Virus record (IMG/VR): IMGVR_UViG_3300020045_004580
Coordinates: 2,883 to 66,882 of that record
Direction: 5' to 3' (one strand)
Length of the DNA: 64,000 bases
Source of the DNA: a virus
Lineage: Duplodnaviria; Caudoviricetes
Shown: positions 468 to 60,156 of the stretch, piece after piece
Numbering within the stretch: the first letter of the stretch is position 1
Layout: each line of letters starts with the position of its first letter
The notes under the pieces: generated by a model
The model's input: the letters and a program-made list of their open reading frames with translations, nothing else
Database searches by the model: none
What the model was told of the DNA's origin: nothing
Made by a program: the position numbers and the translations under genes

Positions 468-1499
468 ATGGCTCATAATTTAAACATTAAGCCTAACGGA
501 CAAGCAAGTTTTGTTAGTAAAAAAGAACTACCTTGGCACGGTCTTGGTACAATAGTTGAAACTCTTCAAGCTAAAGAAGCTATGGAATTAGGGGGATTAG
601 ATTTTGAAGTAGAAAAAAGACCTCTATATATACCAGGTAAAAATATTACTTTTGAAGAAGCAAAACTAAATCCTAGAATACAAAGACATATTATAAAAAA
701 AGACGATGGATTAGTATCTAATTATAATAAACTTATTAAAGTAAAAGAAAAATTTGCAACTGTAAGAACTGATACTGATGTAGCTTTAGGATTAGTAGGA
801 AGTAAATATACAGTAGTACAAAATAAGCATGCTTTTGATTTCTTTGATGATATAGCTCAAGACGGTGTAGCAGAATATGAAACTGCTGGAGCATTAGGTA
901 ATGGAGAAATAGTATTTATTACTGCAAAAGTAACAGAAAGTATGACTATACATAAAGATCAAATTGATAAATATTTATTAATAAGTTTATCACATGATGG
1001 TTCTTCTGCTATTTCGGTTGCTTATACTCCTATAAGAGTAGTATGTAATAATACTTTAACTTTAGCATTAAGAGGTGCTGTAAATAAAGTACAAATTAGA
1101 CACACTTATTCTGCTCATGATAAATTAGATGCTGCTAAAGAAACTCTTGGTTTAATTAAACAAGGAGATAATGCTCATATGGATTACTTTAATAAATTAT
1201 TAGATATTAATGTATCAGAAGGAGAAGTAATTGATTTATTTATTAATGCCTACAAAATCGATACGAATAATCTCTCTACTAAGGGCAGGAATATCCTAGA
1301 ATCTAATTTAGATTATTATTATAAAGGACTAGGACAATCTGATTATGTAGGTACAGGTTGGGGAGCTTTTAATGCTGTAACTGGGTATCTTCAAAATGTA
1401 AAAAATTATACAAATGATGATATTAAATTTAAAGCAGTATTAATGAATAATCAACAAACTATTAGAGATACAGTTTTAACATCTTTATTACAAGATTAA
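468..1499 (+). CDS. DUF932 / TIGR03299-family phage-plasmid protein
   Basis: MAHNL start, LPWHGLG, ETAGALGNG, SHDGSSA, TPIRVVCNNTL, IRHT and GTGWGAFNAVTGY motifs. Confidence 0.85.
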   Translation: MAHNLNIKPNGQASFVSKKELPWHGLGTIVETLQAKEAMELGGLDFEVEKRPLYIPGKNITFEEAKLNPRIQRHIIKKDDGLVSNYNKLIKVKEKFATVRTDTDVALGLVGSKYTVVQNKHAFDFFDDIAQDGVAEYETAGALGNGEIVFITAKVTESMTIHKDQIDKYLLISLSHDGSSAISVAYTPIRVVCNNTLTLALRGAVNKVQIRHTYSAHDKLDAAKETLGLIKQGDNAHMDYFNKLLDINVSEGEVIDLFINAYKIDTNNLSTKGRNILESNLDYYYKGLGQSDYVGTGWGAFNAVTGYLQNVKNYTNDDIKFKAVLMNNQQTIRDTVLTSLLQD

Positions 1500-1839
1500 T
1501 GATAACTAAAATTACTGATTACTTAAATTTATATATATCAAAAGATGGGATACCTTTAAAACAGATACTCGCACCTGAAGATATTAATCAAATAGCAGTA
1601 TCATTATATCATCTTACTAAAGGTAAAGAAATAAAAGATTTTGAAGCTATTAGTAATGGATTATTTAGTAACTTAAAAGAAAAAACAAGTAATGCTGTAT
1701 TTTATCCTATAAAATCAATACCTTTTTTACCTATAAATTCAGATGAAGAAGAAATTGCTAATATAGCATTACTAGGTTACTATTGTTTTATGTATTTCAG
1801 TGTAATACATAACCTGCCCATAGAAAAGATTATATTCGT
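1263..1839. repeat. dispersed TGCCC..TCGT motif, two copies (1263-1287 minus; 1815-1839 plus)
   Basis: TGCCCTTAGTAGAGAGATTATTCGT and TGCCCATAGAAAAGATTATATTCGT. Confidence 0.85.
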
Positions 1840-2035
1840 GGTTAATTCTTTTATATCTAAACATATTATTAATGTAGAAGATATATATAAAGTTAATTGT
1901 AATAATCCTATTTCTAATCTTGTTCCTATTAATGAAGAACAATATATACGTTTTAATGGTAAAACTATAATACCACCTTTTGACGAAATAAAAGATAATT
2001 TTATAAAAGAAATAACAAATTTATTAATTAAATAA
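1499..2035 (+). CDS. hypothetical protein
   Basis: 178-aa ORF overlapping the upstream stop (TAATG coupling); no recognised motif. Confidence 0.7.
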   Translation: MITKITDYLNLYISKDGIPLKQILAPEDINQIAVSLYHLTKGKEIKDFEAISNGLFSNLKEKTSNAVFYPIKSIPFLPINSDEEEIANIALLGYYCFMYFSVIHNLPIEKIIFVVNSFISKHIINVEDIYKVNCNNPISNLVPINEEQYIRFNGKTIIPPFDEIKDNFIKEITNLLIK

Positions 2036-2047
2036 AATCATAATAAT

Positions 2048-2590
2048 ATGAATACAATATTTATAATAAGCATTATAATACTAGTAGTAATTATAATAGT
2101 ATTAATTAATTTATTTATAGCAGCTAATCAAGATAGAATAGATACTTATAAAAAATTAGATAATAATAGAGAATATGTTAAAACATTACAAGAATTAATA
2201 AAAAATAATCCAGTCTTAAAAGAAAAAGAATTACAAATAAAAGAGAAACAAGAACAACTTAATAAACTCTTTTATTTAATGACTCTTAAGTTTAAAAAAC
2301 TATTAACTGAGCATGAAGCAAATATAATAAGTAATAATTTTCCTTTTAAGTACAGTTCTAATATAGAACAGAATATAAATCCATTAAATAGTATAAGATT
2401 TAAAAAAACATCAGAAGGTGTTAATACTTATGTAAATGGAGCAGTAAAACCTACAGATGTTATAATAGAATTAGAAAATTATAATTGTTTAAGTTTAAAA
2501 AACATAAAATTTATTGAAGAATTAAATAATATAGATACTAATAATATAACTAAAGAAGAAATAGATAAATTAAGTAATCTTATAAAATAA
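2048..2590 (+). CDS. membrane-anchored hypothetical protein
   Basis: N-terminal hydrophobic helix (IFIISIIILVVIIIVLINLFIAA) followed by a coiled-coil-like segment. Confidence 0.7.
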   Translation: MNTIFIISIIILVVIIIVLINLFIAANQDRIDTYKKLDNNREYVKTLQELIKNNPVLKEKELQIKEKQEQLNKLFYLMTLKFKKLLTEHEANIISNNFPFKYSSNIEQNINPLNSIRFKKTSEGVNTYVNGAVKPTDVIIELENYNCLSLKNIKFIEELNNIDTNNITKEEIDKLSNLIK

Positions 2591-2596
2591 CTAAAA

Positions 2597-3154
2597 ATGG
2601 AAAATTTAAATATAATAGAAAATAGTTTAGTTGTTTTATTATTTGTAGCTTTAGCTTATATAGCTATTTATATAAATTATAAATATAAACAAAGTTTAAT
2701 AATTAATAATAATTATGAAAAAGAAATAAATCTATTAATATCAGAAAATAATAAACTTTCAAAATTAATAATAAAAGAAGAAGAGGAGAATCATAGACAA
2801 AGTAAAAGTATTAATGATCTATATAGTTTTTTAAATTTATTTATAAATCAAAATACATCTTTAATTGTTTATAGTTTTTCTAATTTTCATAAAAACTACA
2901 ATTTTCATAATAAAAGATACTATGCTAAAGTTAATAATAAAATTGTAAATAATAAAGCAGAAGCTATTCCATTTTTACAAATAAAAGGACAGAGTAATAC
3001 TGTATTTGATTTATATAAGTTTATAGAAATAACAAATAGAACTAGACCTCAATCATATATTGATACTTTAAATATAATAAGTTCTTGTTATATTACTAAA
3101 GAAGAAGTTATTAAAAACTTAGGTAATAAAATACTTAAAAATTATAAAGGATAG
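2597..3154 (+). CDS. membrane-anchored hypothetical protein
   Basis: N-terminal hydrophobic helix (LVVLLFVALAYIAIYI); tightly packed in the operon. Confidence 0.7.
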   Translation: MENLNIIENSLVVLLFVALAYIAIYINYKYKQSLIINNNYEKEINLLISENNKLSKLIIKEEEENHRQSKSINDLYSFLNLFINQNTSLIVYSFSNFHKNYNFHNKRYYAKVNNKIVNNKAEAIPFLQIKGQSNTVFDLYKFIEITNRTRPQSYIDTLNIISSCYITKEEVIKNLGNKILKNYKG

Positions 3155-3160
3155 GATAAT

Positions 3161-3191
3161 AAAAAAGGGGTATCAATTGATACCCCCTTTT
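3161..3191. terminator. bidirectional intrinsic terminator between convergent modules
   Basis: AAAAAA-GGGGTATC-AATT-GATACCCC-CTTTT: 8-bp stem flanked by A and T tracts, between the stops at 3154 (+) and 3237 (-). Confidence 0.85.
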
Positions 3192-3236
3192 AATAACTAA
3201 AATTCTAACTTATAAAAAATTTGACAATTGAGTTAC

Positions 3237-6200: not shown

Positions 6201-9200
6201 TAGTGATTCACTTACAAATTTATTGAGATAATTTTTTTCTATTATTTGTAATTTAGTTATAGCATTTTTAGCTTCATCTTCTATAATACTATATCTATTC
6301 ATTAATTCAACAGATTCTTTATGTTTAGCTGTAAATGTATATTCTCTAGCATCTTTCCAAAAATTAAGAATATTACGAGAATATACAATATCTTCAGAAT
6401 TCATAGGATTACTAAGGATATTATTTACAGTATCTAAATCTTCTTTGGCTTTTAAAGCAAAGTCTGTTAAATTTTTTAATTTAGGTACAGACATTAAATC
6501 TACTTTATCTTTTAATATAATTTCATTTAACTTTTCAGCTTCTAAGATATTATTCTCTGCTTTTAATCTTCTTAATTTTTTCTCTCCTTGAATAATCCTT
6601 GAACGTAAAGAAGAAGCGTATTGATAATAATTAGCTCTTATATTTTTATTACTTTCTTTATTTCCAGTTATATTTACACCTGCAAATTCTAATGAATCTA
6701 AGCTCCAATCATCAGGTGCTAGATTTGTATCAATATTAAGAGAATAATTATTAAAAGATAATGGTAAAACTTCTACATAATCTTTTTCTATAATAGTAGC
6801 TTTTACACCTGCAAAGTTTTCATTAATAAAATTAGCTATTTCACTGGCATTGCCCTTAGGAGAGAGTTCATTAGTATCTGATACTAAATTGAACTTTTCA
6901 TTTATAAAAGAAATACTTCTTTCATATTTAGGTTTAGGAAGATTAGCTAAATGATTATTTCTAATATCATCTGTTAAAGCTAAAATACCACCTATAGCAT
7001 CAGCTAATTTTGTATTTGATTTTACACCTAAAGCATTAAGTAATCCTGATAATAATTCTAATAATTTAGTCCATAAAGTTTTCTTTGCTAATTTAATTTC
7101 TTTATTATTAAGATACTCTTGAAATTTAGGTTTAGTAAGTACAGCAGCAATAAATTCATCAAGATTAAGTATACTATAAATTAAATCAGATTCCACACCT
7201 TTAATAAGAGGACGTCTTTTATTTATATCTTTAGAACTTACAGCTTCTTTCATAGAATTTATAAATTCTTGTCCATATTCTTCTATTAATAAATCTTCAA
7301 CTTCTTTTCTTAAATTTTCTAAATCTTTAGTTATAGGATTTTCGTTTTTAACTTGTTTTTTAAATAAAGCATGAATAGCTTCTTCAGCTACCACACTTGC
7401 CATATCTTCTATTGTATTAAATTTAGAAGGATTAATAGCTATATAACCATATTCACTAGTAGATTTATACATTCCTTTTGCTTTTAAATTATAATCTAAT
7501 ATAATAGGAGTAGTACTTATAATAGGTAAAATAGTAGAAGCATTAGATAAAAAATATCTTAATATAGGATTACTTTTACCATTAGTTTTTTGAATAATAT
7601 TAAAAATTAAAGCATATCTATCTTGAAGATTTAAACTTTTATCAGTTAAACCTAATTCATCTGCAAAATCTCTTGTTTCATTATTAATTTCGTCTGGAAA
7701 TACATCTTCTGATTTATCTCTAGTAATAGTCATAAAATCATTTATATTTTCTTCAATAGCTTTAATATTTATTGTTTCTACTTCTGTAGTTAATCCTAAT
7801 TCTACTAAAATGTTTAAAGGTAAAATAGATAAAGAATTAATAAGATTAATATCTCTATCAATTTTTTTATTAGATATTGCTAAGTCTTCTATTGGTACAA
7901 TAGTATTAGTAATTGGATGATATAAATTATTATAACTATTTCCTTTTTTAGTTAGATAAAATTCAGAAGTAGTTCCATTTTGTGTTAATTGAATAGGATA
8001 AGCTGGAATATCAGAATTATTTACACTTATAATAGTTCTTTCTCCTACAGTACTATCAATTTGAGCAGTAAAAGGTATATTATTTTTTACCATTAAATTT
8101 GATTCAACTTTAGTAGATTGAATATCTTTAATTTTATTTTCTTTTACATTAATTAAACTACTATTATTTCTAAAGTCTAAACTAGTAGGGTTCATTATAT
8201 CTAAATCATATTCTGTATTATCTCCCCATCCTAAAGGATTTAATCTAATAAAACCATTAGAAGTTTTATATTGTGTATGATATTTTCCATCTTCTCTAAA
8301 TACTATATAAGAAGGTAAATCTTTAATATTTTTACCTGTAAATTTTCCATTTTCAAAATAACCTTTATATCCATTATCTAATTTATAATCATAATAATCT
8401 TTCATATTATGTTGTAAATGTTGTATTTTGAATTGAGGAATTAATAAATTATTTTCCATAGTAGGATTAATAAAATCAGAAAAAGTTTTACTAGTATTAG
8501 AATAATATCCAAGTTGTTTTAAATAAGTAGTTGGAATGTATTGTATAAACTTAGTAGAAGATGGTACACCTTTACTATAAAATTGATGTAAAATAAGTAG
8601 ATTACCTAAATCTTTACTTGTTATAGCATTATTATTCCAAGTGCCTAAATAAACAGGTTCATTAATCATTTCTATTAAAGAGTTTACTATTTTATTTTCA
8701 GAATTATCTACTTTACTTACAGAAGAATATTGAATATTAATAATAGCAGGATTTATATCAGTAACTTGTATTACAGGTTTAAAATCAATATATAAACTAT
8801 TAAGTAAATCATTAGTATATTTAATATTATTTTCATTATTATCTCTTAAGTTTTGAATAAACTCTCCAAGACTTTCATGAGAAGTAGAAGAATATATAAT
8901 GGATTTATATATATCACGAGCTTCCATTCCTTTCATAAAAACAGGTACAGCTTTATCTATTTGTTTTGCACTTAAAAATGATTTTAAATCTTTTAAAACT
9001 AAAGAAGCGTAATCACTATAAGATGATAATCTAAATATATCTTTACCTGTTTTTTGTCCAATATCTGTAATTAAATTTTGAATAGTTAAATTATTAAAAG
9101 GAAAAAATTTACTCCATAAAGCAACATTAGTAGAAACTCCATAAGTTAATGCAGATTGTCCTATAGATGAATACGTTTTATCATATTCTTGTGTATCAGG

Positions 9201-12200
9201 ATTATAAGTATACCCATTAAAATAAGAACCTACATTTGCAATAGTAGTATTATTCATAGCGGAATCAGCTTGTTGAAGTTTAGCAGCGCTATATACAATA
9301 TTTTTACCAACTCCTGTACTATCAACATTTAAAGCACTACGGACTTGTGCTAATGCTTGTCCATTTTTTTCCATCATTAAAAATAAAGCAAGAGAATTTA
9401 ATTGTAAATCTAATTCAGGTTTTAATATTACACCATCTTTAACAGAATTATTAAAAATAGATATAAGTTCTTTATCTGTAATATTATCTGAAAACATATT
9501 AAAATCAGCTTGTAAAGAATCTAAAGAATAATTAGCTAAATTAGTACTAGTTTTTTTTAATCCATATACAGCAGATAATAAACTATTCTTAACAGTACTA
9601 TTAGTAACTGAATCGAGATACATTTTCACTACGGGCTGGTTTATTATACCCATAATAACTTCTTCATTATACCCACTTGCTATCATTGCTCTAATAAAAT
9701 CAAAAGTAGAATCACTAACATTAAGTTTACCTAATATCTTTTCTTTACCATTATCTAGTGCTGCAGCCATTAATCCTTCTAATACATCAGATTTATATCT
9801 ACCACTTCCGTCATTTAAAAAAGGATCATTTATATTATTATTTTTAAATCCAAAAGTATTAATATAAACAGGTTTAAAAGTATAACCATCTTTAGTACTT
9901 ATTTTATATTGAAAATATAAAGGGTCTTTACTATATTGACCTAATGAGTTTAAAATCATATCTAAAGAAAAATTCCCAACAGCAGTTTTACCTAAATTAC
10001 CGCTAATATAATTATCATCTTGTACATTTCTATCTAAAAAAGTATAATAATCTTTAGTTACTTTATTAGCAAATTTTTGAATCATTTCTTCAAGTCTACC
10101 AAAAGATAAAGGTTTAGTTCTAGCTCTTTGAACTTCTTTAGAAGGGTTATCTAATATAGATCTTTGTATATCTAATATTTCATTATCTATTACTAAAATT
10201 TCTATATTTTTAATTTTATATAAAGATTTAGATTCTTCTATTTTTTTATTTAATTTAATATCTTTTAATAATTCAACTTTAGTTTTACCTTTATAATTTT
10301 TAAGTCTTTTAACATCATTATTTAGTTTAAAAATATTATCAATAATAACTTTTCTTTCTTCTATATGTTTAGTTGTTAATTTTTCTAAACTATTTGTATC
10401 TTCATTATAAAAAGTAGCATAAGTATTAGTATAAAATTTATCAACATCAAAATCAGAACCCATTTGTTTAGTAAAATCAGCAGGTGCTATTACAACATCT
10501 CCATAAGATTCAGGAAGAAATCCAACTACTCTTATATTACTCATTAAATTTATACCCGAAGTTGGAATACGAAATCCAAATCCTTGTAATAATTCAATAG
10601 GTAGTTTTTCAGTATCTAAATTTCCATCTTTATTAATAAAATCTTTTATATTTAAAAGTTTTCCATTATTATCAAAAAATCTAAAAGGAACTAAAATATC
10701 AGCAGAAGTCATTACTCCGTTATCATTATAAGAATTTTTTAATTCCCCTTTAAATGTGTCTAAAAAAGTTATTCCATTATTTTTAGAATCTACTTCTGAG
10801 TTAAAAGATCTAATACCAGCATCAGATGCTAATATATAAGCACGTCCAAATCTTTTTCTTTTTCTAATTCTATTATCTACAATAGATGATAATAAATTTT
10901 CTATTTTAGAAGAAGATATAGATTGCCATAATGGTATATCAAAATTAAGACCTGATTCATCTAATTCAAATGAAGCAGTTTCATTAAAAGTCCAACCTTT
11001 ACTAATAGCTTCATCACTTAATATTTTTTTAAGTTTAGCAATATTACCTATATTACCATTTTTAATATCTAATTCTTTTATTAGTTTTTGATATTGTATT
11101 TTAAATCTTTCTTCATATTTATTAAGATACATATTAGATAATTCTCTACCTGATATTTCTTTTGTTTTATCAAGTGGATTTTTAAAACCTAATACATCAA
11201 GTATATTAGTAAATGAAAGTTTAGCTTGTTGAGTACCGTCATTTATTTCAGATTTATTACTTTTATCGGGATTATCTTGTTGATTTCCATGCCCTTCTCT
11301 AGGTATATTTTTTATTATATGTTTATCTATATTACCTTTTAAAGCTTCAGGTATAATATTACCTTGTTTATCAAATAATTTTACACTTTCTATTGGATTT
11401 CCAGCTTTAATACCAGATGCAAATACAGCTACTTTTACTTTATTTTTAGGGTTTTCTAAATAATCTCTTAATATATCTAATTGAGTATTATTTGTAAATT
11501 CTTTTATTAAAGGTAAACTAGAAGTTTTAATATATAAAGTTTCCATTATACCATTAGAACCCATATAGGTATTAAAATATAAAGGTTTAAAAGGAATTAA
11601 TACAGTATCTAAATCTACTTTATTAACTTTACCAGTTTCTTTATAAGTTTTTAATATATTGATTGCAGTTGATTTAGGAATCATAGCATTATAAACCATT
11701 CTATCTAAATGTTCTTCTAAAGAAGTGTATTCTTGGGCATCTCCATTTTCTATAGAAGAATAAGATTTTAATACATTTTGTAAAGAAGGGTGATCTGCCC
11801 ATAATTGAGATAGATAATCGTTACTTGTACTTTGAATATCAGTATCTTCAATAGATAATACAGAAAAAGTACTTCCACTAGGAAATTGAAAATCTTCTTT
11901 ACCACCATTTACAGCTGCATATCTTTTAGTTGCATTATCAAAAGTATTTTCTATATTTACGGATTTATCTTCATTTAATTTAGTATAAAAAGCAGGGTCA
12001 TTAAATAAAAGTTGTTGCATATTAGCATTAGCTACTAAATAATTAATAGTATAATTAAGTGCTACACCTTTACCTTCTTCCATTGTAATTCTAGGATTCT
12101 CTTTAAAAGCATCAGAATATTTTTTATCAATAAATATCATTTTATCACTATATTTATTTTCTTTTCCTTTTTTAAGTAATCCTAATTTTTCCCATTTATT

Positions 12201-15200: not shown

Positions 15201-18200
15201 ACTATCAGGTACGTTAGCTCTATTTTCACCTCTTTCAATCTGTGCTTTTATTCTTTGTTTAGCGAGTTCAGGATTTAACTCCATTAGCTTGTATTGAATA
15301 TTAGCATTAGGAATTTCTTTTTTAATAGCTTTTATAAAAGGTAATCTTTTATCTTTAGTTAAATTAGTAGTATCAAATACAACTTGTTTACCTTGTTTAA
15401 TAGCCGTTACAGCTTTTTTAGCAGCTTCTTCATATATTTCTTTATCTTTAGATTTATCATTTATATCACCTGTAAATTCTACTCTCATAGCATCTGGTTC
15501 TATAACTACTAAATTTTCTTGTGGTAGAGATTTTATAAATGTTGATTTTCCGCTTCCACTTGTTCCAATAGGTAATATTACGTTTGGCTCTGATTTAGTT
15601 TGTTCATCACTTCTAAACCACCCAATACCATTATCAGTAGCAAATTGGGCATGCCCTTTAATAGAAGGAGTAATAGCTGGAGTAGCTATTTCATTTTCTG
15701 TGTAATTAGTACCTCCTGGAACTGTTAAATTAGAATAATATTTAGTTGGAGTTTCTACATTAGTTATTTTTACAGCTTCATTATATTCTTCTTTAGTTAT
15801 TCTTTCATCATTTTTAAAATATTTAATTTCATTATCTCCTATAACTACAGGTGGTTGTGTTCTATAAGTATTTTCATTAATAGTTACATCTTCTATACCT
15901 ACAATAGTTTGCCCTTTATTACCTTTATTTTTAGTAGTATTAATTTCAATAGTGTAACTATAATTAGCTAATAAATCTGTAATAATTTCTTCTCTATTAG
16001 TTTTATTTAAGTCTAATGTTAATTGTTTTTGTTTTTTAGGTATTTGTAATTCTGTTAAGATTTTATCTAATGACCAATTATTTTTATTACCTTTTTCAAA
16101 TACTTGTTTAGATTTATTACTATTAAGAATATTAACAACTTTTAAAGTATATTGAATTTCTGGAATATTAGATATAATATCAGGACTTAAATCTTCATCA
16201 GTAACATCACTAAATAAATCATCAGCTTCTTCTACTTCTTTTATAATAGATTCTATTTTTTTAGGTAATTTATTTTTGTTAGTTGATTTTATTAATTTAT
16301 CAGTTTTATTTTCTAATAAAGGTAAATCAAAATTAATACGTTTTTGAATGGTAGTTATTTTATTACCACTAGGTAATACAATAGAACCATAAGGAGATAC
16401 TGAAACTTGTTTGATATAATTATCATAAGTTGGGAACTCTTTATCTATTCCTTCTTGATTAATAATTAATAAAGGATTATTAGATTTTAAATTTTCTAAA
16501 GAAGCATTAGCAAAAGAATCTTCTAATATATCTTTAATATTAACTAATAAATCATTTAATTCATCTTCTTTTCCTTTATATTCAGAAGCTTTAATAGTAT
16601 AAACATCTAAACCTTGACCACGTCCTATATAAAAATCTCCTTTAATAAAATTAATATAAACTTCATCTTCGGGTCTTGTATTTAAAGCATCTTTAAAAGA
16701 GTTTAAATCTTCAGGAAAATAATTATTAATTTTAATAGAAGAAGTATTTACTAATTTAGATATATAATTTTCTAATCCTTTATTAGTTAAAGTATTTAAA
16801 TTAATTCTATTTTGTAAAGCTTTTGTACCTTCATTATGTTCACCTAATGCAAAAGCTCGTAAACTATCTACAATTGCAATTTGCATAGGTTGAAATAATC
16901 TTGTTCTACTACCATAATAAAAATAATCTTTAACTTTAATTACAACACTTCCTTCATTAAAATGTAAATATTCAGGTAATGGTATATTACCATTTGTAGT
17001 TACTAATTCTCCATTTTGTATAATACCAACAGGAAATTCCTCAAATTGAGAAAGAAATGTAGCATCTTCTTCATTAGGATTAGTAATAGGAGCTCCTTTA
17101 GATATTTCAGTTATTTTAGATGTAACTTGTTCTCCGTTAATTATACGATTACGTAAATTAATTAAATTAGCTCTATCTAATTCTATATTATCAGGAGTAT
17201 TATTTATATTTTCAGCAGTAATCCAAGATACATTATGTAAATATAATCCATTAATTAATTCTCCATTATGAATAACCCCGATAGGTTTCTCTTCTACGGG
17301 CAAGGTATTAGCTAATACTATATTACCATTGTCATCTGTATAAGATTCTAAAGGTATAAAACTAATTTCATCTCCTATATTAAAATAATTATCTTCTAAT
17401 ATTTTAAAATCTAGATTAGTATTAAGTAAATTAGATAATAAACCTTTATCTATTTCATAATATACTTGTCCTTCTTTAGTTACTTTTTTTACTTCATAAT
17501 AAACTTTGCCATCTTCTGTAGTTCTTTTTATAGCTTTAGTATTAAAAGCTTGAGATAAATAAGCTAAAACATTACTACCTGTTTCATTATAAATAGGATA
17601 AGCAATTCCATTAACTTCAGCACTTGGATTATTTAATATAATATTTTGTTTAGTATTTTGCATTGCAATTCTAGATTCTTCATCAATATCATATACAAAT
17701 ACCCCACTAGGTAAAGTAACTTTAGCTAATTTATTAGATAATACTAAATCATTATTAGTATCTTCTATTGTATCAAATAAATCTTTATAAGTTCTAGATT
17801 CATTTGTATTATTAGCTAAATTAAATAAAGCTTGTAAAGAATTATATTGTGATTTAACCAATCTACTACCTAATACAGTAACAAATTCAGTCATTACATC
17901 TTCATAATTAGTAATATCTATACCTCTATTACCCATAGTTTCTAAAATAGAACTATAAATATCATATTTTGCATCTAATACTTCTTTATTAAAAGGTAGT
18001 TTTTCTTCTGTTTCTTCATCAAATGCTGGATTTTCAAAATTATCTTCTTCTAAATCTAAAGCAAAATCAGTAATCTCAGAATCATATATATCATTAGCTT
18101 CTTTTTCTTCTGGAGATAAATTTACTTTTTCAGCTTCAAGTTCTCTTAATTTATCTTCTAATTTAGTTACAAATTTACGAGTAACTTCTTCTCCATCAGA

Positions 18201-24354: not shown

Positions 24355-25815
24355 TTATTTTCTTAATAATCTTTGTTTTCTTTTATTCATTATATTTTTT
24401 ATAGAAGCTAAATCCCTTTCTTTTTGTCTAGTAGGATCACGTAATAAATCTAAATCTATAATACTTTGCTCTCTTCTATCTGTATTAATATCTCTTTTTA
24501 CAGCTGTATAATCCTCGACAAAATTAGTAAAATTATCAGAAGTGCTATTAGCTCTATCTATTTTATTTTGATAAACATCTTGTTGATATTCATCTTGTAA
24601 ATCCATATTAGCATTAGCAGTATCAGTTAATATTTTATTTTGATTATTTTTTAATTGAATTTCTTGAGCTTCTTTATTTGCTAAAATATTACTAGAAGCT
24701 TCTAAACCTCTTAAATTATTAGCAGTTATATTAGCCCGAGCTACTGCAGAATTATTAGTATTTCCTCTTACTACTTCATTGCCTGATGCAATTGTATTTT
24801 TTATTTCAGCTAAAGCTGGGTTTACATTTACATTTGTATTTAAAATAGGAGAACGACGAGCTAAAGGTTTAGGAGGTTTAGGTGAATTAGTTGTTAAAAT
24901 AGCATTAGTAATATTATCTATTACTAAAGGAGCTAAAGAAGCATAAGACTCTAAACCTTCTTCTTCTTTTTCTGATTTAGTTACATAATCTAAATTAACT
25001 ACATCACCTTTAGCTTTATTACTTTTTATAATATCTGGATAAAAATCATTAAAATTAGTATTTCTATTTCTATTATAAAGATTTAAACCATTAGCTCCTT
25101 TTTCTACTACACCATTTTCAACTTCTATCATTTCTTGTGTATCTCCAACTGTATTTTGTTTTACTAATTCTTGCTCTTTAAAAAGATTATCATTTTTATT
25201 TTGTAATCCTTGTATAGTTCTTTTAATAGCAAAAGTTTCAGAAGGTTTTTTAGAAGATTCTAAATTAGATTCTAATTCTCCTATTTTAGTATTAACTTCT
25301 AAAGCAATATCAGCAAATGTTTTATTTCCTTTTTTAAGTTTATCACTAAAAACCATTTTATTATCTACTACTACTTCTTCATCTTCAATATTAGCAACAG
25401 GTTGACCATCTTTAGATAAAGTAACTCCATAAGAATTATCTATTTTCTTTTCAGAATGTTTATTACCTACTACTACATCAGCGTTATTAGATATAGGAAG
25501 TAAATCTCCACCCGTAGTATCAAACTTGCCCTTAGTAGAGAGGTTATTCGTTTTAGGTATGTTACCTCCTTTAGCATAAACAGGTAAATCATTTATATTA
25601 TTATTTATAAATTGATCATTATAAACATCTTGTTCTATTATTGCATTATTAAGATTATTTTGTTGTAAAATACCTTCTTGTTTTGCTTGTTCTTTTTTTA
25701 ATTTATTTTGCTGTATAATTCCCATAATACCTGATACGGCACTCATTCCTAATCCTATTCCAGCATCTAATCCTAAAGCACCTTTAGGTATTAATTTTTT
25801 ATTTGGTTTTTTCAT
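24355..25815 (-). CDS. virion cargo/ejection protein (crAss-like)
   Basis: Gly/Ala-rich N-terminus, AKGG motif, GNKHSE...NIEDEEVV...VFSDKL segment and coiled-coil C-terminus; sits between muzzle and vRNAP genes as in crAss-like phages. Confidence 0.6.
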   Translation of the reverse strand: MKKPNKKLIPKGALGLDAGIGLGMSAVSGIMGIIQQNKLKKEQAKQEGILQQNNLNNAIIEQDVYNDQFINNNINDLPVYAKGGNIPKTNNLSTKGKFDTTGGDLLPISNNADVVVGNKHSEKKIDNSYGVTLSKDGQPVANIEDEEVVVDNKMVFSDKLKKGNKTFADIALEVNTKIGELESNLESSKKPSETFAIKRTIQGLQNKNDNLFKEQELVKQNTVGDTQEMIEVENGVVEKGANGLNLYNRNRNTNFNDFYPDIIKSNKAKGDVVNLDYVTKSEKEEEGLESYASLAPLVIDNITNAILTTNSPKPPKPLARRSPILNTNVNVNPALAEIKNTIASGNEVVRGNTNNSAVARANITANNLRGLEASSNILANKEAQEIQLKNNQNKILTDTANANMDLQDEYQQDVYQNKIDRANSTSDNFTNFVEDYTAVKRDINTDRREQSIIDLDLLRDPTRQKERDLASIKNIMNKRKQRLLRK

Positions 25816-26008
25816 ATCTATAATTTTTAAATTCTATTACTAATTCTTGATTCAACATTAACATTATGTATATGTGTACGAGTATTTTCAATATTATTCA
25901 TAATTAACCTAATAATTATGAAGTTACTAATAAAATCTGATTTTTCAAACCAAACTCTATTTAAGTGTACTTTTCCTTCATCAAACGAGCCATCTTCTCT
26001 TATGGGCA
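25527..26008. repeat. dispersed motif, convergent pair (25527-25551 plus; 25985-26008 minus)
   Basis: TGCCCTTAGTAGAGAGGTTATTCGT and TGCCCATAAGAGAAGATGGCTCGT. Confidence 0.85.
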
Positions 26009-37566: not shown

Positions 37567-38568
37567 TTAAGGTTCTATATTTTCTTCTTCATCGTCATAC
37601 TCTATCCAAATATCAGAGTCTGTAGATTGTTTATTATAATCTAAGGAATTAATATATTCAACTAGTTGTTGAATAAGAGAACCTTCTCCTGATAAATCAG
37701 AAGCTTTTATTTTAATAGTTCTAGAAAAATTATTTTGATTCATAGTATCTGATAGATTTTCAACATTAAAAGCAAGTAATGATATTGCATTAAAATCTAC
37801 ATTTATAATATACTTTGCTAAACAAGAAGTAAGTTCATTAAACATAAAAAAATTATTAATAGTAGTATTATAAAAATTTATAATATCAGAACCCATATCT
37901 TCTGTATTTAAAAATAGAAGACTTTTATAATAATAAAATAAAGAATAATAATTACCAACTATTACTGTTTTAAATAAATTAGAATTAATATCAGTAGAAC
38001 CATTAATATAATAATTGAAATATTCTTTTCCTAATTCAGTTTTTTTATCTAATATAGTATCGTTAAAATATAATTGTATAAAATTAGATAAATAAAAATT
38101 AGTAATAAGAACTTCCCCGTAAGAGAAAGGTTTAATCGTATTAGGTAGTATAAATGTAGTGTTAAATAATTTTTGATTTTTACCAGTATAACAAGAATCA
38201 CATTCTTTTTTACAAGTACAAATAACATCTTTAATTTGTTTAATAAATTCAGTAATAAAAGTATCATTAATACTTAAATAAACTAAATAATTAGAAACAG
38301 TATTTGAATAAACCTCTAACGAATAATCCCCATCTACGGGGTAAGAAGTTAAACCAGTTTCAGAAGTAAAAGAATCAATAATAGTAGGATTACCATTATC
38401 ATCAATTTTACTTAAAATAAAATTATATATAGTAGAGTTCAAAGATCTAATCTCTTTAAGACCAAGACCTAATCGTATCTCAATATAGTTATCTTTATAA
38501 TACATAATATAAATAGGTTTTAAATTAATAAACCTACTATTAATAATAATAGTAGGTTTAACAATCAA
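37567..38568 (-). CDS. hypothetical virion-module protein
   Basis: 333-aa ORF called from a TTG start; the true start may be the ATG of MYYKDNY; Cys cluster CTCKKECDSC. Confidence 0.65.
   Translation of the reverse strand: MIVKPTIIINSRFINLKPIYIMYYKDNYIEIRLGLGLKEIRSLNSTIYNFILSKIDDNGNPTIIDSFTSETGLTSYPVDGDYSLEVYSNTVSNYLVYLSINDTFITEFIKQIKDVICTCKKECDSCYTGKNQKLFNTTFILPNTIKPFSYGEVLITNFYLSNFIQLYFNDTILDKKTELGKEYFNYYINGSTDINSNLFKTVIVGNYYSLFYYYKSLLFLNTEDMGSDIINFYNTTINNFFMFNELTSCLAKYIINVDFNAISLLAFNVENLSDTMNQNNFSRTIKIKASDLSGEGSLIQQLVEYINSLDYNKQSTDSDIWIEYDDEEENIEP
38114..38342. repeat. dispersed motif, convergent pair (38114-38139 plus; 38319-38342 minus)
   Basis: TCCCCGTAAGAGAAAGGTTTAATCGT and ACCCCGTAGATGGGGATTATTCGT. 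Confidence 0.8.
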
Positions 38569-43302: not shown

Positions 43303-44697
43303 TTAAAAATTAATTTCATTCATACTAGGAATGTAATCATTTTGTGTTTTAGTTGTTTTACCTTTATCACTACTTGTATTACGTTTATTATTTTTAGCCA
43401 TACGCTCTCTTAATCCTTCAACTTTTTGAGTTTGTGCAATATTACGAGCTAAAGCTGATATATCGTTATTTTTATAACGAAGATAAGACATTAATAAATC
43501 AGAATTTATATCTTCTTTTTCAGCATCTAACATATCTTTAGATTTACCATCAGATACTGGAGTTAAAATATAAGAAAGAAAAGCTTCACGTTCAGCAAGA
43601 GGAATATTAATATTAGATAGTTTACCATTTTTGATGGTATTAGTAACAGTATTCCAATATTTTTCTGTTTCTTGTTGTTCTTTGATTTCTTTTTCTTTTA
43701 ACTGTTTATCAATATTTATTTGTTTTTGTTTTTGTTGTTCTTTTAAAACAGAAGCATTAGTCATTACTTCTGTATTATAATCTTCTTCTGATAAAGTATC
43801 TAAATATTTAAGATAATTAGCAGTAAGTTGTTGACCTGTAGATGTATAAGCTTCTTTAATAATAGCTTGTTTAGCTTCTTTAGTTAAAGTTTTATAATCT
43901 AATTTATCATAATCTACTGTACTAGATTTGTAACCTTCTGCAGAACCATGTAATAAATAATGTTTACGGAAAGCTTCTAATTCAGGATTAGATTGCATAT
44001 AATTTTCCACAGCAGAAGAGCTTAATACTTTAGCTACTTTAGCTACTATATCTACAATAGAATCTTCTGAATCATCAGGTAAAAAATCATCTTTAAATGA
44101 TATATCAAAATTCTTAGATAAAGCATTCATTACTACACCTACTGTAGTATTTTCTCTAAATAACTCTACTTTATTTTTTACAACATTACCCTCAGCATCT
44201 ACAAAATCTCCATTTTCATTTACAGGTAAACTATTATTAGTTAAATAGTGTTTAACTTGTTCAGCAGTGTAAAGAATTTTACCATCAGCATCTACAATTT
44301 GACCTTCTGCGTTAAAAGCTTCACCTCCAAAAGTATCTACAATATTAAGTAATTCTTTAGATTCTTCTTCACTTAAATTAGCAGTATCTTTGTTTTTTAC
44401 GATATTAAGTAAATCCTCAAAAGAATTAATAATATTAATAGAATCATCATTAGAATTGTCAGAATCATTATCAGTATTATTATTATTTTCTAATTCTGTT
44501 TTTTTCTTTTCCTTTTCTTTTTCTTCTTCTTCTTTTAGTTGCTCAGCTGTTTTACCTGCATTGCCCGTAAGAGAAGAGTCATTCGTGGTTTGATTATCCT
44601 CGTTGTGTAAATTCTCAAAACTTATTTGGTCTAAGGCTTCAAGATTGTTATCAATATTAGAAGTATTATCTTCTTTGTTTTCATTTTCAGTTGCCAT
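43303..44697 (-). CDS. acidic scaffold-like protein between portal and MCP
   Basis: Very acidic, low-complexity N-terminus and coiled-coil C-terminus; conserved crAss-like position. Confidence 0.6.
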   Translation of the reverse strand: MATENENKEDNTSNIDNNLEALDQISFENLHNEDNQTTNDSSLTGNAGKTAEQLKEEEEKEKEKKKTELENNNNTDNDSDNSNDDSINIINSFEDLLNIVKNKDTANLSEEESKELLNIVDTFGGEAFNAEGQIVDADGKILYTAEQVKHYLTNNSLPVNENGDFVDAEGNVVKNKVELFRENTTVGVVMNALSKNFDISFKDDFLPDDSEDSIVDIVAKVAKVLSSSAVENYMQSNPELEAFRKHYLLHGSAEGYKSSTVDYDKLDYKTLTKEAKQAIIKEAYTSTGQQLTANYLKYLDTLSEEDYNTEVMTNASVLKEQQKQKQINIDKQLKEKEIKEQQETEKYWNTVTNTIKNGKLSNINIPLAEREAFLSYILTPVSDGKSKDMLDAEKEDINSDLLMSYLRYKNNDISALARNIAQTQKVEGLRERMAKNNKRNTSSDKGKTTKTQNDYIPSMNEINF

Positions 44698-44863
44698 AAT
44701 TTTAATTATTTATTAATACTTGTTTTTCTTTGTTTTAATGCTTTAGCTTTTAACTCTAAATCTTTATTATCTTTATTAATAGTATGATTAAGTTGTTTAT
44801 CTTTTCTATTAGAATCTCTAATTTTTAAGTCATCATCCAACGAAGTATCTTCTTCTATGGGCA
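44562..44863. repeat. dispersed motif, convergent pair (44562-44586 plus; 44840-44863 minus)
   Basis: TGCCCGTAAGAGAAGAGTCATTCGT and TGCCCATAGAAGAAGATACTTCGT. Confidence 0.85.
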
Positions 44864-47060
44864 AGTCTTGTTCAAAATCTGAAAGTAATTTACCTTCTAA
44901 CATTTTATCGGCTGTATATTTAACACCTTCTAATTTAGAATCTATTTCGTAATATTTAAGTTCATCTGCGGCTATTTGTATTTCTTTTTTTAATTCTTCA
45001 AGTTGCATAGCTCTATCATGTTCAGCAGAGGCTTTTTGTTCTTCTAGTTGTTGCATTGTTTTTTCCATCTTATCAAGAAGGGTACTAACTTTAGAAGTAC
45101 TATTAGTACTATACATTTTACTTACTGTAGCAGCACTGGCTCCATTTTGAATCATAGCTTGACCGTAACTTCTCATCGCTTCTATACCTCTAGTATTAGT
45201 GCTAGCATCTTTTACAAATACATTATAATTAGAAGATGCGTGATAATTAGCTTGGTCTATATTCATTTCAAATATACCACGAGAACTATCACTATATATA
45301 TAAGATTCTTTAATTCCATTTATCCAAGCAGCTTTTGATATATCTAGTAAACCTTGATAATCTTTTTCTAGCATCTTATCAAATTGACGTACAAGTTCAT
45401 AAGTAATTATAGCACTACGTACAATAGCTTGTTCAGTTGTAGCTTTACCCGCATATTGTTTTACATCAGCAAATCTTTGAGCATTCATACCAATAGATTC
45501 CCAATATTCATTTTTAGTAGCTATAGCTAATGTACCTAAATCATTTATAATACTATTTAAACTCATATCTATAGATTTAATCATAGATGCAGCAAAAGAA
45601 GCATTAGGAGCAGCTTCATCAATCCATAATACAGATGTAGCGTCCATATGATAAGCTTGTTTAGTTGTGCTAATACCTTTTGAACGTGGTACTAAACCAT
45701 AAGGCATTACTAGTATTTTATCTTTATTTTTATTAATTAGTTTTTCTGTACTAAATTTAATAACATTTACAATACGTTGATAAGGTATAGCTTCTTTTAC
45801 AATAGAATTAATTTCTCCTATTCTAGTTCTAGCTATAATACCATTATAACAAGATTTAAGATTACCTTTAGAATCTACATCAGAACGGTCAAAAGCAACT
45901 TCTCCACATTTAAAGAAATAATCCATTACTTTATATCCTTCTATTTTACAAGTATACCATTCTTTACTTATCTCAATATCACCAAGTTCAGGTTGTAATT
46001 CATAATCACTAGTAACTTCATTTTCTTGTTCTAATCCAAATTCATCTATATACTTTAATATGTATATATCTTTATAACTAGTATATATAACATGGAAAAC
46101 TTCTATACCATTAGTGTAAGCAGTCATTGGTATAGTAGAATTAATATAATTACTTTGATTATAATTACTCATACTACCATTTCTACCAGTTTGTTGATAT
46201 TTTTGATTGTATTCATTATAACCGTTATTAACTTCCATTTCAAAAGCTTCTATTTGAGAGTCTTTTAATTCTCCTTGTAACATTTCTAATATTTGATAAG
46301 GAGTCATAATTCTACGTCTAATATGAACTTCCGCATCTTCAACAAGAGAACTTCCAGGTTTCATATTAATAACAAAAAGTTCATTACGAGGCACTATTTC
46401 ATATATAACTTCGTTATTTATAACATCTTTATATGTAAAACAACCTCCTGTTACAACCCAGTCATAAAAAGCATCTAAAACTTTATGGTCAACATCACAA
46501 TAAAACTTAATAAAGTCTAAAGCTTCTTGTCCTTTTATTAAAGTAGCATCATTAAAGGTAGTATTAAAATTATTAACTACCGATTCTAATTCAGGCATAG
46601 GATTTTGTTCATCAATTTGTACTCCTGTAGTTTTTTGCCAATCTCTAAGAAATTTAGCTTTATGCCACTCTTTAATAATCATATTTAAAGCTTCATATCT
46701 AGCTATATCATCAGCAGGATTAAGATTTACAGTTTCATACTCATGACTTCTTGTTCCAAATTCTCCAAGCATTAATTTAACTACTCCACCTGCTATATTA
46801 TAATTAGTTAATTTGGCTTTATATAAAAAGTCAGTATTAACATTACTATCTTGATTTGTAGTTTTATATATAGCTTCGTAATCTTTAGGATTAATAATTC
46901 CCTCCGCTATAGCATATAATTGATTAATTTCTTCTAATTCAGCTTGCCATCCAGAAGTATCTATATAATGTTGTATAGTTTCTTCTATATTTGTAAGTCC
47001 GGTTTCATTATTTCTTCTTCCCTTTTCTTCTAAGGTAAGTAATTGATTTGGTAATGCCAT
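44706..47060 (-). CDS. portal protein
   Basis: 784 aa directly downstream of TerL; NYNIAGGVVKLMLGEF, PYQRIVN, IGMNAQR motifs and coiled-coil C-terminus. Confidence 0.85.
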   Translation of the reverse strand: MALPNQLLTLEEKGRRNNETGLTNIEETIQHYIDTSGWQAELEEINQLYAIAEGIINPKDYEAIYKTTNQDSNVNTDFLYKAKLTNYNIAGGVVKLMLGEFGTRSHEYETVNLNPADDIARYEALNMIIKEWHKAKFLRDWQKTTGVQIDEQNPMPELESVVNNFNTTFNDATLIKGQEALDFIKFYCDVDHKVLDAFYDWVVTGGCFTYKDVINNEVIYEIVPRNELFVINMKPGSSLVEDAEVHIRRRIMTPYQILEMLQGELKDSQIEAFEMEVNNGYNEYNQKYQQTGRNGSMSNYNQSNYINSTIPMTAYTNGIEVFHVIYTSYKDIYILKYIDEFGLEQENEVTSDYELQPELGDIEISKEWYTCKIEGYKVMDYFFKCGEVAFDRSDVDSKGNLKSCYNGIIARTRIGEINSIVKEAIPYQRIVNVIKFSTEKLINKNKDKILVMPYGLVPRSKGISTTKQAYHMDATSVLWIDEAAPNASFAASMIKSIDMSLNSIINDLGTLAIATKNEYWESIGMNAQRFADVKQYAGKATTEQAIVRSAIITYELVRQFDKMLEKDYQGLLDISKAAWINGIKESYIYSDSSRGIFEMNIDQANYHASSNYNVFVKDASTNTRGIEAMRSYGQAMIQNGASAATVSKMYSTNSTSKVSTLLDKMEKTMQQLEEQKASAEHDRAMQLEELKKEIQIAADELKYYEIDSKLEGVKYTADKMLEGKLLSDFEQDLPIEEDTSLDDDLKIRDSNRKDKQLNHTINKDNKDLELKAKALKQRKTSINK

Positions 47061-49916: not shown

Positions 49917-49940
49917 AAAGCTCGTTATTAAACGAGCTTT
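49917..49940 (-). terminator. hairpin overlapping the nuclease stop codon
   Basis: AAAGCTCGTT-atta-AACGAGCTTT perfect 10-bp stem. Confidence 0.6.
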
Positions 49941-52525: not shown

Positions 52526-52738
52526 CGTTATTATTAGTTTAAATTATTTAATTAAAATTGTTATTTTTTATATCATAAAAAATGGAAGGTTTTAGGTCCT
52601 AAATAGTCTTAGAATTTATAATAGAAAAATCTATAGTACGAGTATATATAAATTCATTATTAAAATCTATAGTAATAATATCATTAAAATCTATATTAAT
52701 ATTATATCTATAATTGACAGTAATTGACAGTAGAACTT

Positions 52739-52894
52739 TGCCCGTAAGAGAGAGTTTAATCGTATTTATTCCTTCATATCGTTTAGATATGTCAAATATA
52801 ATATTTCTAACGTTCATATATACTATATAATAATGTTAAAATTATGTTAAAGTTTTATACAACAAACCACTAGTTAACATCTCTCTTATGGGCA
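52739..52894. repeat. dispersed motif, convergent pair (52739-52763 plus; 52869-52894 minus)
   Basis: TGCCCGTAAGAGAGAGTTTAATCGT and TGCCCATAAGAGAGATGTTAACTAGT. Confidence 0.88.
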
Positions 52895-52961
52895 ATTCTA
52901 ATAATATAACTGTCAATACAATTAGACCTATAATAACTAATACTTCTGTCAACTTAGGTAC

Positions 52962-56545: not shown

Positions 56546-56668
56546 CTAGCTTAATAACCAGTTTTACAATGCAATTTATACCACTACTACAAATGTATAG
56601 TACGCCATATAAAATAAGATAGCATATATAAACTGGTTATTATTAATTAACACTAAATTAACAATAAA

Positions 56669-56938: not shown

Positions 56939-56956
56939 TAACATAAAATTATAACC

Positions 56957-57151: not shown

Positions 57152-57160
57152 AATAAAAAT

Positions 57161-58103: not shown

Positions 58104-58133
58104 TAAATAAAAACAATCTTAAAAACAAATGAT

Positions 58134-58913: not shown

Positions 58914-58916
58914 AAC

Positions 58917-59255
58917 ATGAAAAATACTCACATACCAAACTTACTTAAAGAAGTTCCTAAAGATATTAGATTAGAAGTATATAAGGAAGCTTTAGATATA
59001 ATAATTAACAATAAAATCATTAAATCAAATTCAGGTTATAATTTATGTATATTATTACCTTGTTTACTATGGGATTTAGAAGATTATTGGGATATATCAC
59101 CAAATGGTGAAACTTGGCATTATCAGGAAACTATTAAAGCTTTTCCTGAATTAACACAAAAGTTTATTAATAATATTAATAAAATTACTAATATTAATGA
59201 TAGACATAATATGAGAATAAATTTATTACAAACTAGTATTAAATTATTATCTTAA
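58917..59255 (+). CDS. hypothetical protein
   Basis: 112-aa ORF coupled to the upstream gene. Confidence 0.65.
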   Translation: MKNTHIPNLLKEVPKDIRLEVYKEALDIIINNKIIKSNSGYNLCILLPCLLWDLEDYWDISPNGETWHYQETIKAFPELTQKFINNINKITNINDRHNMRINLLQTSIKLLS

Positions 59256-59260
59256 TAATA

Positions 59261-59517
59261 AAGGTTAAACCTTGAAACCTTGTAATAATATGTAAATAGA
59301 TGTCCATATTATACTAAAGAAACTATTTCCAAATAAATAAGGAATAGAATACAACACTTGAAATGGTATTTGAGAGTGAACATAAAGACAATAATAAAGT
59401 TATGAGAAATATTGAATAAAATCAATTCTTGGGTAATATTATTATATATCTTGTTGATGTATTAGGAGTTACCAGCTAGACCATTAGATTATATAAGTGC
59501 CTACCTTTTAAGTAGGA
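59261..59517 (+). ncRNA. candidate structured RNA element, copy 2
   Basis: Begins AAGGTTAAACCTTGAAACCTTGTAATA like 57161; ATAATATG/CATATTAT and CTATT(T)CC/GGAATAG stems. Confidence 0.45.
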
Positions 59518-59844
59518 GTGACTAAAGTAATAATGGTGCTAAAATATAAACAATTAAATAATCACAAAATGTTAAAGAACAGAATTAAAGGTAAAATTTA
59601 TGAAGATTTAGTACCTACAGTAATAATTAGAAAAAGTAGAAGAAGAATAAATATTAATAAAATAGTAGAAGCTAGACTTACAAAAATGTGGAAAAGAGAA
59701 TTAGATTTACCTATTATGAAAAACAATCAAGCTACAATTTCCACTCTAAATAAAAACTATAAATATAGTAAAGGTGGATATGCTTTAGCTAAAAATGGTG
59801 TACCTTTAAATAATAATGGTATAAATGCTTTAAAAAGAATCTAA
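59518..59844 (+). CDS. basic hypothetical protein
   Basis: Called from a GTG start; true start may be the ATG of MLKNRIKG. Confidence 0.55.
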   Translation: MTKVIMVLKYKQLNNHKMLKNRIKGKIYEDLVPTVIIRKSRRRININKIVEARLTKMWKRELDLPIMKNNQATISTLNKNYKYSKGGYALAKNGVPLNNNGINALKRI

Positions 59845-59846
59845 TT

Positions 59847-60089
59847 ATGGATTTAAAATTAACTATTACATATTTAAAATCAGTAGGTTATACTATAACT
59901 GAAAATACAGAAGCACGTATAACTTGTTTTAATTTAGATACTAAATATATTATTACACAATTAAGTAATGGTTATACAATTATATCTCAAGAAAATACAA
60001 TTGATATTAGATTTAAAGGTGTAATTGAGAATCTTCAAGAACTTAAAGGAGTTATTAAACTTATAATTAGAATAAAGAAATTAAGATAA
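59847..60089 (+). CDS. hypothetical protein
   Basis: 80-aa ORF, operon-packed. Confidence 0.6.
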   Translation: MDLKLTITYLKSVGYTITENTEARITCFNLDTKYIITQLSNGYTIISQENTIDIRFKGVIENLQELKGVIKLIIRIKKLR

Positions 60090-60099
60090 TAATACTACC

Positions 60100-60156
60100 T
60101 GCCCGTAATTGAAGAGTTAACTCGACTAACTACGATTAATACTCTCTATATGGGCA
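60100..60156. repeat. dispersed motif, abutting convergent pair (60100-60125 plus; 60132-60156 minus)
   Basis: TGCCCGTAATTGAAGAGTTAACTCGA-ctaact-ACGATTAATACTCTCTATATGGGCA. Confidence 0.88.

Follow-up and report, generated by a model that had tools for sequence, protein, structure and literature searches.

A strand-ordered DNA word recurs through the genome of a crAss-like phage and is conserved across its branch

Eighteen copies of a short DNA word are distributed over both strands of the stretch of phage DNA analyzed here, a window of 64,000 nucleotides that comprises bases 2883-66882 of the viral contig IMGVR_UViG_3300020045_004580. These copies are the window lineage's version of a cis-acting DNA word with a lineage-specific 3' extension, and the word is kept on both strands, at intervals of about 5-8 kb per strand, by the Intestiviridae and by the sister clade of crAss-like phages to which the window belongs. 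We are highly confident that the word is conserved, ordered by strand and read as DNA by a phage factor, and that it is not a transcription signal. Our preferred account of its function, in which the sites are starts of DNA strands and inverted pairs of them are origin-like units, is a tentative one. The crAssphage family dominates the human gut virome, and we know of little that explains how its genomes are replicated, packaged and protected.

Results

A constrained DNA word in the window

The contig is 66.9 kb long with a GC content of 25.6%, and it was identified as that of a crAss-like phage by matches of its portal, major head protein and large terminase (TerL) to PHROG profiles. The window includes a gene for a virion RNA polymerase (vRNAP) of 5920 amino acids, and its major capsid protein (MCP) is only about 33% identical to those of crAss002 and cr271_1, the nearest annotated phages. 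Genomes of the window's clade are approximately 82 kb long, carry PolA and have GC contents of 24-28%.

An initial annotation, made from the sequence alone, had listed 18 copies of a two-box motif, and each is present where it had been placed. The coordinates given there were those of the leftmost base, and the copies were re-indexed here on the first C of the CCC box (Table 1). Fourteen lie in genes, and the other four are intergenic and make up two inverted pairs. When the copies are aligned on the CCC box, conservation extends from about -5 to +24, and the sequence there consists of A/C, C/T, T, T, G, CCC, D, TA, R and a purine run with G at +9, with the C-run appearing as GCCC, ACCC or CCCC in the window's lineage. 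The right box, TCG(T) or TAG, is indeed found 18-20 nt after the CCC box and is followed by a weak G/T-rich tail. The two-box picture holds for the window's lineage but not elsewhere, where other 3' extensions replace TCGT; the part common to the whole phage family is the left box, made up of pyrimidines, CCC(C), 1-2 nt, TAR and a purine run.

A left-box weight matrix, trained on the same 18 copies that it scores, gave these copies 14-30 bits and the rest of the whole 66.9-kb contig no more than 12.4 bits, and it revealed no further strong copy there. Independently of the matrix, TGCCCDTAR occurs 15 times, compared with 1.2 expected and a maximum of 4 in dinucleotide shuffles. The coding copies are read in one frame when sense and in three when antisense, the peptides quoted for them in the initial annotation are correct, and the codons that it described as rare have low relative synonymous codon usage values (CCC, 0.12; ACG, 0.09; GGC, 0.13; TCG, 0.08; AAG, 0.12). 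In 300 protein-preserving synonymous shuffles the number of coding copies averaged 1.6 and reached at most 6, against the 14 observed. Because the copies occupy several frames, use rare codons and exceed the shuffles, the constraint is on the nucleic acid and not on the protein, as had been proposed. We also agree that the word does not match the Bacteroidota sigma-A promoter. The window has no match to Rfam at the gathering score and no tRNA genes.

Sites are kept in place in relatives

A DNA-level search gave no match among annotated phages and a locus search with a single protein found no relatives, and relatives were therefore reached through alignment of the portal. Viral contigs were likewise scanned for exact matches to the strict two-box form, and none was found. 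The relatives returned by the portal search fell into two tiers, one at 67-87% and the other at 36-47% identity. The close relatives are two loci from Logan assemblies (L001 and L002) and two IMG/VR records (G001, a complete genome of 81.8 kb, and G002), all of which carry the motif at the same places as the window. Among sites whose flanks can be aligned as DNA (68-83% identity), position and orientation are the same for 9 of 11 in G001 and for all 6 in L001. Conservation at orthologous positions, on which the initial annotation had staked its proposal, is thus borne out in these relatives, including at sites inside genes.

Positions are also kept in G003 and G004, two genomes with different versions of the word. 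The window's copy at 1285- falls within 5 nt of G003 28564+, and that at 25529+ falls within 4 nt of G003 7080- and G004 11643+; its partner at 26006- is equally close to copies in both (Table 1). The gene after the portal has an antisense copy within its first 45-90 codons in every lineage examined. Overall, positional conservation is in frame and without indels down to approximately 43% portal identity. The open reading frame (ORF) at 37567-38568, which holds the pair 38116+/38340-, encodes 333 amino acids in the window, 369 in L001 and 504 in L002. No orthologue of it could be detected in G003 or G004, but L001 has nevertheless retained the motif pair.

The word has lineage-specific versions

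The distant versions of the word in G003 and G004 were found by K-mer enrichment. G003 has about 18 copies of a version made up of a T-run, CCCC(C), W, TAG, a purine run and GTGTTG. G004 has about 17 copies, mostly in pairs every 6-7 kb, of a version that comprises TT, CCCC, AATAG, a purine run and GTGTTGG. Prototype crAssphage (BK010471) has 31 copies of a word of approximately 24 bp built on CCCCGTRGAGGATGGA, and further versions are present in crAss002 (29 copies) and cr271_1 (17 copies). No such enriched word was found in crAss001 and phi14:2, which belong to the Steigviridae, and cr127_1 (Crevaviridae) had no match to the one pattern tried.

In trees of TerL, portal and MCP that cover nine genomes, the window's clade (the window itself, or G000, with G001, G003 and G004) is sister to the three Intestiviridae in the sample, and the two Steigviridae lie outside. 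The word predates the split of the Intestiviridae and the window's sister clade, and its copies changed in concert, in place, as the word changed between lineages. That the sites outlasted changes in the word implies a reader that is encoded by the phage and co-evolves with the word. The initial annotation knew of no description of the motif in crAss-like phages, and we likewise found no description of the word in the searchable literature, including the Carjivirus phage-plasmid preprint.

Even spacing, strand alternation and inverted pairs

The features that matter most, which were absent from the initial finding, are the evenness of spacing on each strand, the alternation between strands and the geometry of inverted pairs. 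The ten plus-strand copies in the window are separated by gaps of 4.9-8.2 kb with a coefficient of variation (CV) of 0.16, and the CV of the eight minus-strand copies is 0.21; CVs this low are almost never reached under random placement. The strand switches 14 times along the window, compared with 8.9 expected (P = 0.01, permutation). Across the genomes, the spacing CV is 0.16-0.47 in 13 of 14 strand series, with P ≤ 0.04 in 12, and strand alternation exceeds that seen on permutation, as in crAss002 (P < 0.0001).

Five plus-strand copies in the window have a minus-strand partner 52-477 bp to the right. Pairs no more than 500 bp apart have a preferred geometry, with the C-runs outward and the purine ends facing each other in 25 pairs and the reverse in 7 (P = 0.002). 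The closest inverted pairs are 11-60 bp apart, and the intergenic pairs enclose DNA of 16-21% GC. Such a pair is located where the early and late blocks diverge in five genomes (the window, G001, G003, G004 and crAssphage), and both of the RepL genes annotated in crAssphage have intergenic pairs ahead of them. Paired copies resemble each other no more closely than copies overall. Because close pairs with a preferred geometry are in excess, the two strand series are not independent, which argues against a pure tracking-enzyme model of the Chi type and favors units that act both ways.

Orientation is unrelated to gene direction

Orientation was evaluated for 152 sites pooled from seven genomes. 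Of these, 49 are coding on the strand of the gene, 68 are coding on the opposite strand and 35 are intergenic, so that about 77% of copies are coding and the intergenic share is 23%, against approximately 8% of non-coding DNA. Under either polarity of the word, 7 intergenic singles point toward the start of the downstream gene and 5 point away. No consistent orientation or position relative to genes of the promoter or terminator type was seen among the 152 sites, and the suggestion in the initial annotation that the motif provides start or anti-termination sites for a phage RNA polymerase is not supported, given the lack of any relation between orientation and gene direction.

Genes that accompany the word

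Profile hidden Markov models built from motif-bearing genomes for five co-occurring genes detected a late PD-(D/E)XK nuclease, RecT, an ATP-dependent ligase, a superfamily 1 (SF1) helicase and DUF932 in all motif-bearing genomes. None of the five was found with these models in crAss001 or phi14:2, where the TerL and portal controls were found. The window contains the genes for the late nuclease (49928-50893, next to the terminase), the SF1 helicase (61502-62869) and DUF932 (468-1499), and homologues of RecT and the ligase are encoded outside it. The late nuclease has no match in Pfam or by sequence profile in the PDB. Its predicted structure, with a predicted local distance difference test (pLDDT) score of 67, has weak fold matches to Cas4, MGME1, Exo5 and RecE exonucleases (TM-score of about 0.25), and on the basis of this model the protein looks like a recombination exonuclease and not a site-specific nickase.

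The first gene of the early block (53510-54154) encodes a protein of 214 amino acids with an acidic C-terminal tail, and it lies beside the junction pair in G001, G003 and G004 as well. The protein has no Pfam match and no BLASTP similarity to crAssphage RepL, and with a pLDDT of 34 for its AlphaFold model the structure-atlas matches are meaningless. Judging from the tail alone, it might be similar to a single-stranded DNA-binding protein.

Other features of the window and its relatives

TTGACAG boxes are present 10-45 nt upstream of both junction copies, two per arm (window 52697-52735 and 52905-52960), and upstream of the copy at 18436+ (window 18410-18425). The sequences at 18392-18446 (55 nt) and 52697-52751 share 76% identity.

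The contig ends in 115 nt (window 63886-64000) that are a 99-100% copy of 62025-62139 inside the SF1 helicase gene, and the PolA ORF is homologous to its counterpart in G001 only as far as residue 236, about 7 nt within the copied segment. The end of the contig is therefore most likely a chimeric assembly artifact.

A gene for a homing-type endonuclease with NUMOD4 and HNH_3 domains is located two genes upstream of the large terminase gene in L002 (6555-7115) and in a further locus, L003 (558-1118). This gene is present in relatives at 67% identity and absent from the window and L001.

G001 has a 121-bp "direct terminal repeat" (1-121 and 81728-81848) that lies inside a leftward gene block and may be a mere assembly overlap of a circular or permuted genome. 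A second over-represented 8-mer in G001, CAGGGTCA, is unrelated to the main motif and occurs 10 times compared with 0.5 expected (647+, 770+, 4560+, 21236-, 30528-, 37787-, 52556-, 59051-, 79047+ and 81192+). Judging from the block orientation of G001, every copy appears to be opposite to the strand of the local genes.

Table 1. Copies of the word in the window and their fate in related genomes.
Feature	Positions	Strand	First C of CCC box	Relatives or basis
DUF932 gene (468-1499 +), antisense	1261..1288	-	1285	Codon position kept in G001; kept in G003 as G003's version of the word
ORF 1499-2035, sense	1814..1841	+	1817	Kept in G001
vRNAP gene, antisense, right box TAG	6850..6877	+	6853	Kept in G001
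vRNAP gene, sense	9611..9638	-	9635	Lost from G001
vRNAP gene, antisense, second antisense frame	11795..11822	+	11798	Kept in G001
vRNAP gene, sense	17276..17303	-	17300	Kept in G001
vRNAP gene, antisense, ACCC left box	18433..18460	+	18436	G001 54390- is counterpart by gene order
ORF 24355-25815 near N-terminus, antisense; left of inverted pair	25526..25553	+	25529	Codon position same in G001, G003, G004
1358-amino-acid virion protein near C-terminus, sense; right of pair with 25526 copy	25982..26009	-	26006	Position same in G001; G003 5644+ and G004 12847- within 4 nt
ORF 32070-32759, antisense	32449..32476	+	32452	Weight matrix, frame analysis
ORF 37567-38568, antisense (third antisense frame); left of pair	38113..38140	+	38116	Kept in G001, G002, L001, L002
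ORF 37567-38568, sense; right of pair	38316..38343	-	38340	Kept in L001; lost in G001, G002
Gene after portal near N-terminus, antisense; left of pair	44561..44588	+	44564	Kept in L001
Portal near C-terminus, sense; right of pair with 44561 copy	44837..44864	-	44861	Kept in G001, G002, L001
Intergenic, late/early divergence point; left of pair around ~105 bp of 19% GC	52738..52765	+	52741	Kept in L001, L002
Intergenic, right of junction pair, right box TAG	52868..52895	-	52892	Kept in L001
Intergenic, left arm of 57-bp quasi-palindrome	60099..60126	+	60102	G001 equivalent is 51-bp pair 14640+/14691-
Intergenic, right arm of quasi-palindrome; weakest copy, 14.2 bits	60130..60157	-	60154	Weight matrix

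Discussion

A central question is what a phage does with a DNA word that it repeats at regular intervals on both strands. One possibility, and the one that we tentatively prefer, is that the replication or recombination apparatus of the phage recognizes the word in a strand-specific manner, as DNA that is linear and unfolded, and that the word marks the starts of new DNA strands, which could be primed there or extended from a nick. Inverted pairs of closely spaced copies, with their purine-rich ends facing each other across AT-rich DNA, would then function as bidirectional origin-like units, one of which would be the pair at the junction of the early and late blocks. We favor strand starts because of the geometry of the pairs around AT-rich DNA at junctions and at RepL genes, and because of the evenness on each strand together with the replication and recombination genes that accompany the word.

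Several observations weigh against strand starts. The co-occurrence of genes and motif rests on two clades only and is confounded by phylogeny. No candidate for a site-specific nickase was found, and no primase was recognized by Pfam in G001. The known single-strand initiation (ssi) priming signals need a hairpin, and no fold was shared among the 16 sites that were folded as single-stranded DNA (z-scores of -1.7 to +1.6). The flanks of the 152 sites have no step in GC or AT skew, and starts about 6 kb apart on both strands fit no textbook mode of replication. We hold the link to replication with low confidence.

A broader idea, which we regard as doubtful but not far-fetched, is that the word provides a form of genome punctuation. 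One phage-encoded reader and some 20-30 strand-specific sites would co-evolve and direct the handling of the genome at many sites in a strand-specific manner, for DNA-synthesis starts or for self-marking. We know of no phage that uses such multi-site, strand-specific handling. If the idea is true, such punctuation runs in this whole branch of the crAss-like phages, including the most abundant virus of the human gut.

An alternative is that the word directs programmed single-strand nicks in virion DNA, which would have a structural role, for instance as torsional swivels in packaging or ejection, and would not be replication starts. The word is asymmetric, 20-27 bp long, strand-specific, present on both strands, tolerated in coding DNA and indifferent to transcription, all of which would suit a nick site, as would the presence of an ATP-dependent ligase and the late nuclease in all motif-bearing genomes and their absence from the two motif-less ones. 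Nick-associated consensus sequences of about 9-19 nt are known from other phages, and the nicks of T5 are dispensable and unevenly placed. The sites described here, however, are deeply conserved and evenly spaced, unlike those of T5, and at inverted pairs separated by 11-60 bp the two strands would be nicked so near to each other that the DNA might break. The modeled resemblance of the late nuclease to exonucleases of the Cas4 and RecE type also speaks against it as the nicking enzyme, and we consider programmed nicks an unlikely explanation.

The main idea of the initial annotation was a duplex binding site for an architectural, partition or packaging protein; such a protein would bind the inverted pairs as a dimer. 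Two boxes about two helical turns apart in the window's lineage, the even spacing of the sites, the preferred geometry of the pairs and the lineage-specific versions, which imply a co-evolving phage protein, are all compatible with a site of this kind. A reader that is indifferent to strand would not be expected, however, to produce alternation between sites 3-4 kb apart, which is clearest in crAss002, or separate evenness on each strand. Moreover, no DNA-binding candidate emerged, and the first early protein could not be modeled usefully and matched no family. A duplex binding site therefore seems to us an unlikely explanation as well.

It has also to be considered that the word is a polar signal of self on single-stranded DNA, similar to Chi, and is read by the phage SF1 helicase and PD-(D/E)XK nuclease or by AddAB of the host. 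Such a signal would switch the enzyme from degradation to RecT-dependent recombination and thereby spare the phage DNA. A polar tracking enzyme would select even spacing per strand in both orientations, the word lacks secondary structure, and RecT, the SF1 helicase and the Cas4-like nuclease co-occur with it; a word of this length would also be absent from the host genome by chance, as a marker of self must be. Known Chi sites have a length of 5-8 nt and their readers are RecC or AddB, counterparts of which were not seen here. In addition, crAssphage and crAss002 share a host genus but not a version of the word, which speaks against a reader supplied by the host, and a tracking enzyme does not require an excess of close pairs with a preferred geometry. 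A classical Chi-type site, which is host-read and shared by the phages of one host, was rejected because the word has 20-27 conserved positions and differs between these two phages of Bacteroidaceae. A Chi-like signal of self is quite improbable.

A transcription signal (a promoter, pause or terminator), used by the injected vRNAP or by host RNA polymerase with a phage factor, has a certain appeal at particular sites. If the word is read from the purine side toward the CCC box, the junction pair would fire outward into both blocks, and the complement, pyrimidine-rich DNA followed by a G-run, loosely resembles a T7-type initiation region. Pairs of the hairpin type come after stop codons, and crAss-like vRNAP has no known promoter motif; indeed, a preprint on the phi14:2 vRNAP describes early promoters that lack a common motif. 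Yet the 117 coding copies and the intergenic singles are divided between the two orientations, most copies are deep within genes, and the vRNAP is present in phi14:2 and crAss001, which lack the word. The absence of a fold and of an Rfam match also tells against a signal in RNA and led us to reject an RNA element in general. Long-range RNA pairing between pair members was rejected as well, since their differences are uncompensated and all pairs share one consensus without covariation. Further candidates, namely an integration host factor consensus and sigma-54 or extracytoplasmic function (ECF)-type promoters, were discarded for lack of a match and in view of the orientation results. A role in transcription is accordingly very unlikely.

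Finally, miniature mobile elements, which the inverted pairs superficially resemble in having the look of terminal inverted repeats, and by-products of codon or peptide bias are scarcely credible, given in-frame conservation of position without indels (which contradicts a miniature inverted-repeat transposable element or any mobile inverted-repeat unit), pair members no more alike than other copies, the failure of codon-preserving shuffles to reproduce the motif, and a prokaryote-wide scan for the hairpin form of the window's word that returned only unrelated hairpins and CRISPR-like repeats and no clue to the host.

Whichever function the word has, a sequence of 20-27 bp that is kept family-deep through essential genes and against codon preference must serve an indispensable step, and the same holds for its even spacing on each strand. 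The window contributes a sister clade that branches deeply, a version of the word with two boxes, and sites that are kept in place across versions, and it illustrates that the 3' box specific to a lineage may carry as much information as the core common to all. The word is a defined oligonucleotide bait, and the cultured systems crAss002, whose host is Bacteroides xylanisolvens, and Carjivirus communis are available for finding the reader. It is also a simple annotation marker for this branch of crAss-like phages.

The closest known relative of the window's word is that of the Intestiviridae (crAssphage, crAss002 and cr271_1), with which it shares the core of pyrimidines, C-run, 1-2 nt, TAR and purine run, as well as even spacing per strand, alternation, inverted pairs, copies inside genes and positional conservation. 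The two differ in the C-run, which is CCCC(C) there and GCCC in the window, and in the second conserved box, TCGT, which the window's lineage has 19 ± 1 nt downstream.

Among better-known systems, the nick motifs of T5, phiKMV-like and tf-like phages are likewise asymmetric, strand-specific, dispersed and tolerated inside genes, and their reader is presumably a phage enzyme. The word described here differs from them in its presence on both strands, its even spacing, its deep conservation and its very close inverted pairs, and nicks at its copies are hypothetical. Chi, FtsK-orienting polar sequences (KOPS) and SpoIIIE recognition sequences (SRS) are similarly orientation-dependent, dispersed at fairly even density and read by a DNA-tracking enzyme, but they are 5-8 nt long, host-read and common to all replicons of the host, whereas the word is 20-27 nt long, specific to phage lineages and paired between strands. 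The stoperators of cluster A mycobacteriophages and the C1 operators of P1 also comprise tens of asymmetric copies of a single word, dispersed along the phage genome and read by one phage protein; these are mostly intergenic and oriented to transcription, whereas copies of the window's type are largely coding and ignore gene direction. RSF1010 ssiA and ssiB and the signals of G4 and phiX type offer a parallel for the inverted pairs, in that a strand-specific pair beside AT-rich DNA directs outward synthesis and is read by a replicon-specific enzyme. Those signals depend on a hairpin and occur once per replicon, whereas the crAss-like word has no fold and is repeated 18-31 times per genome.

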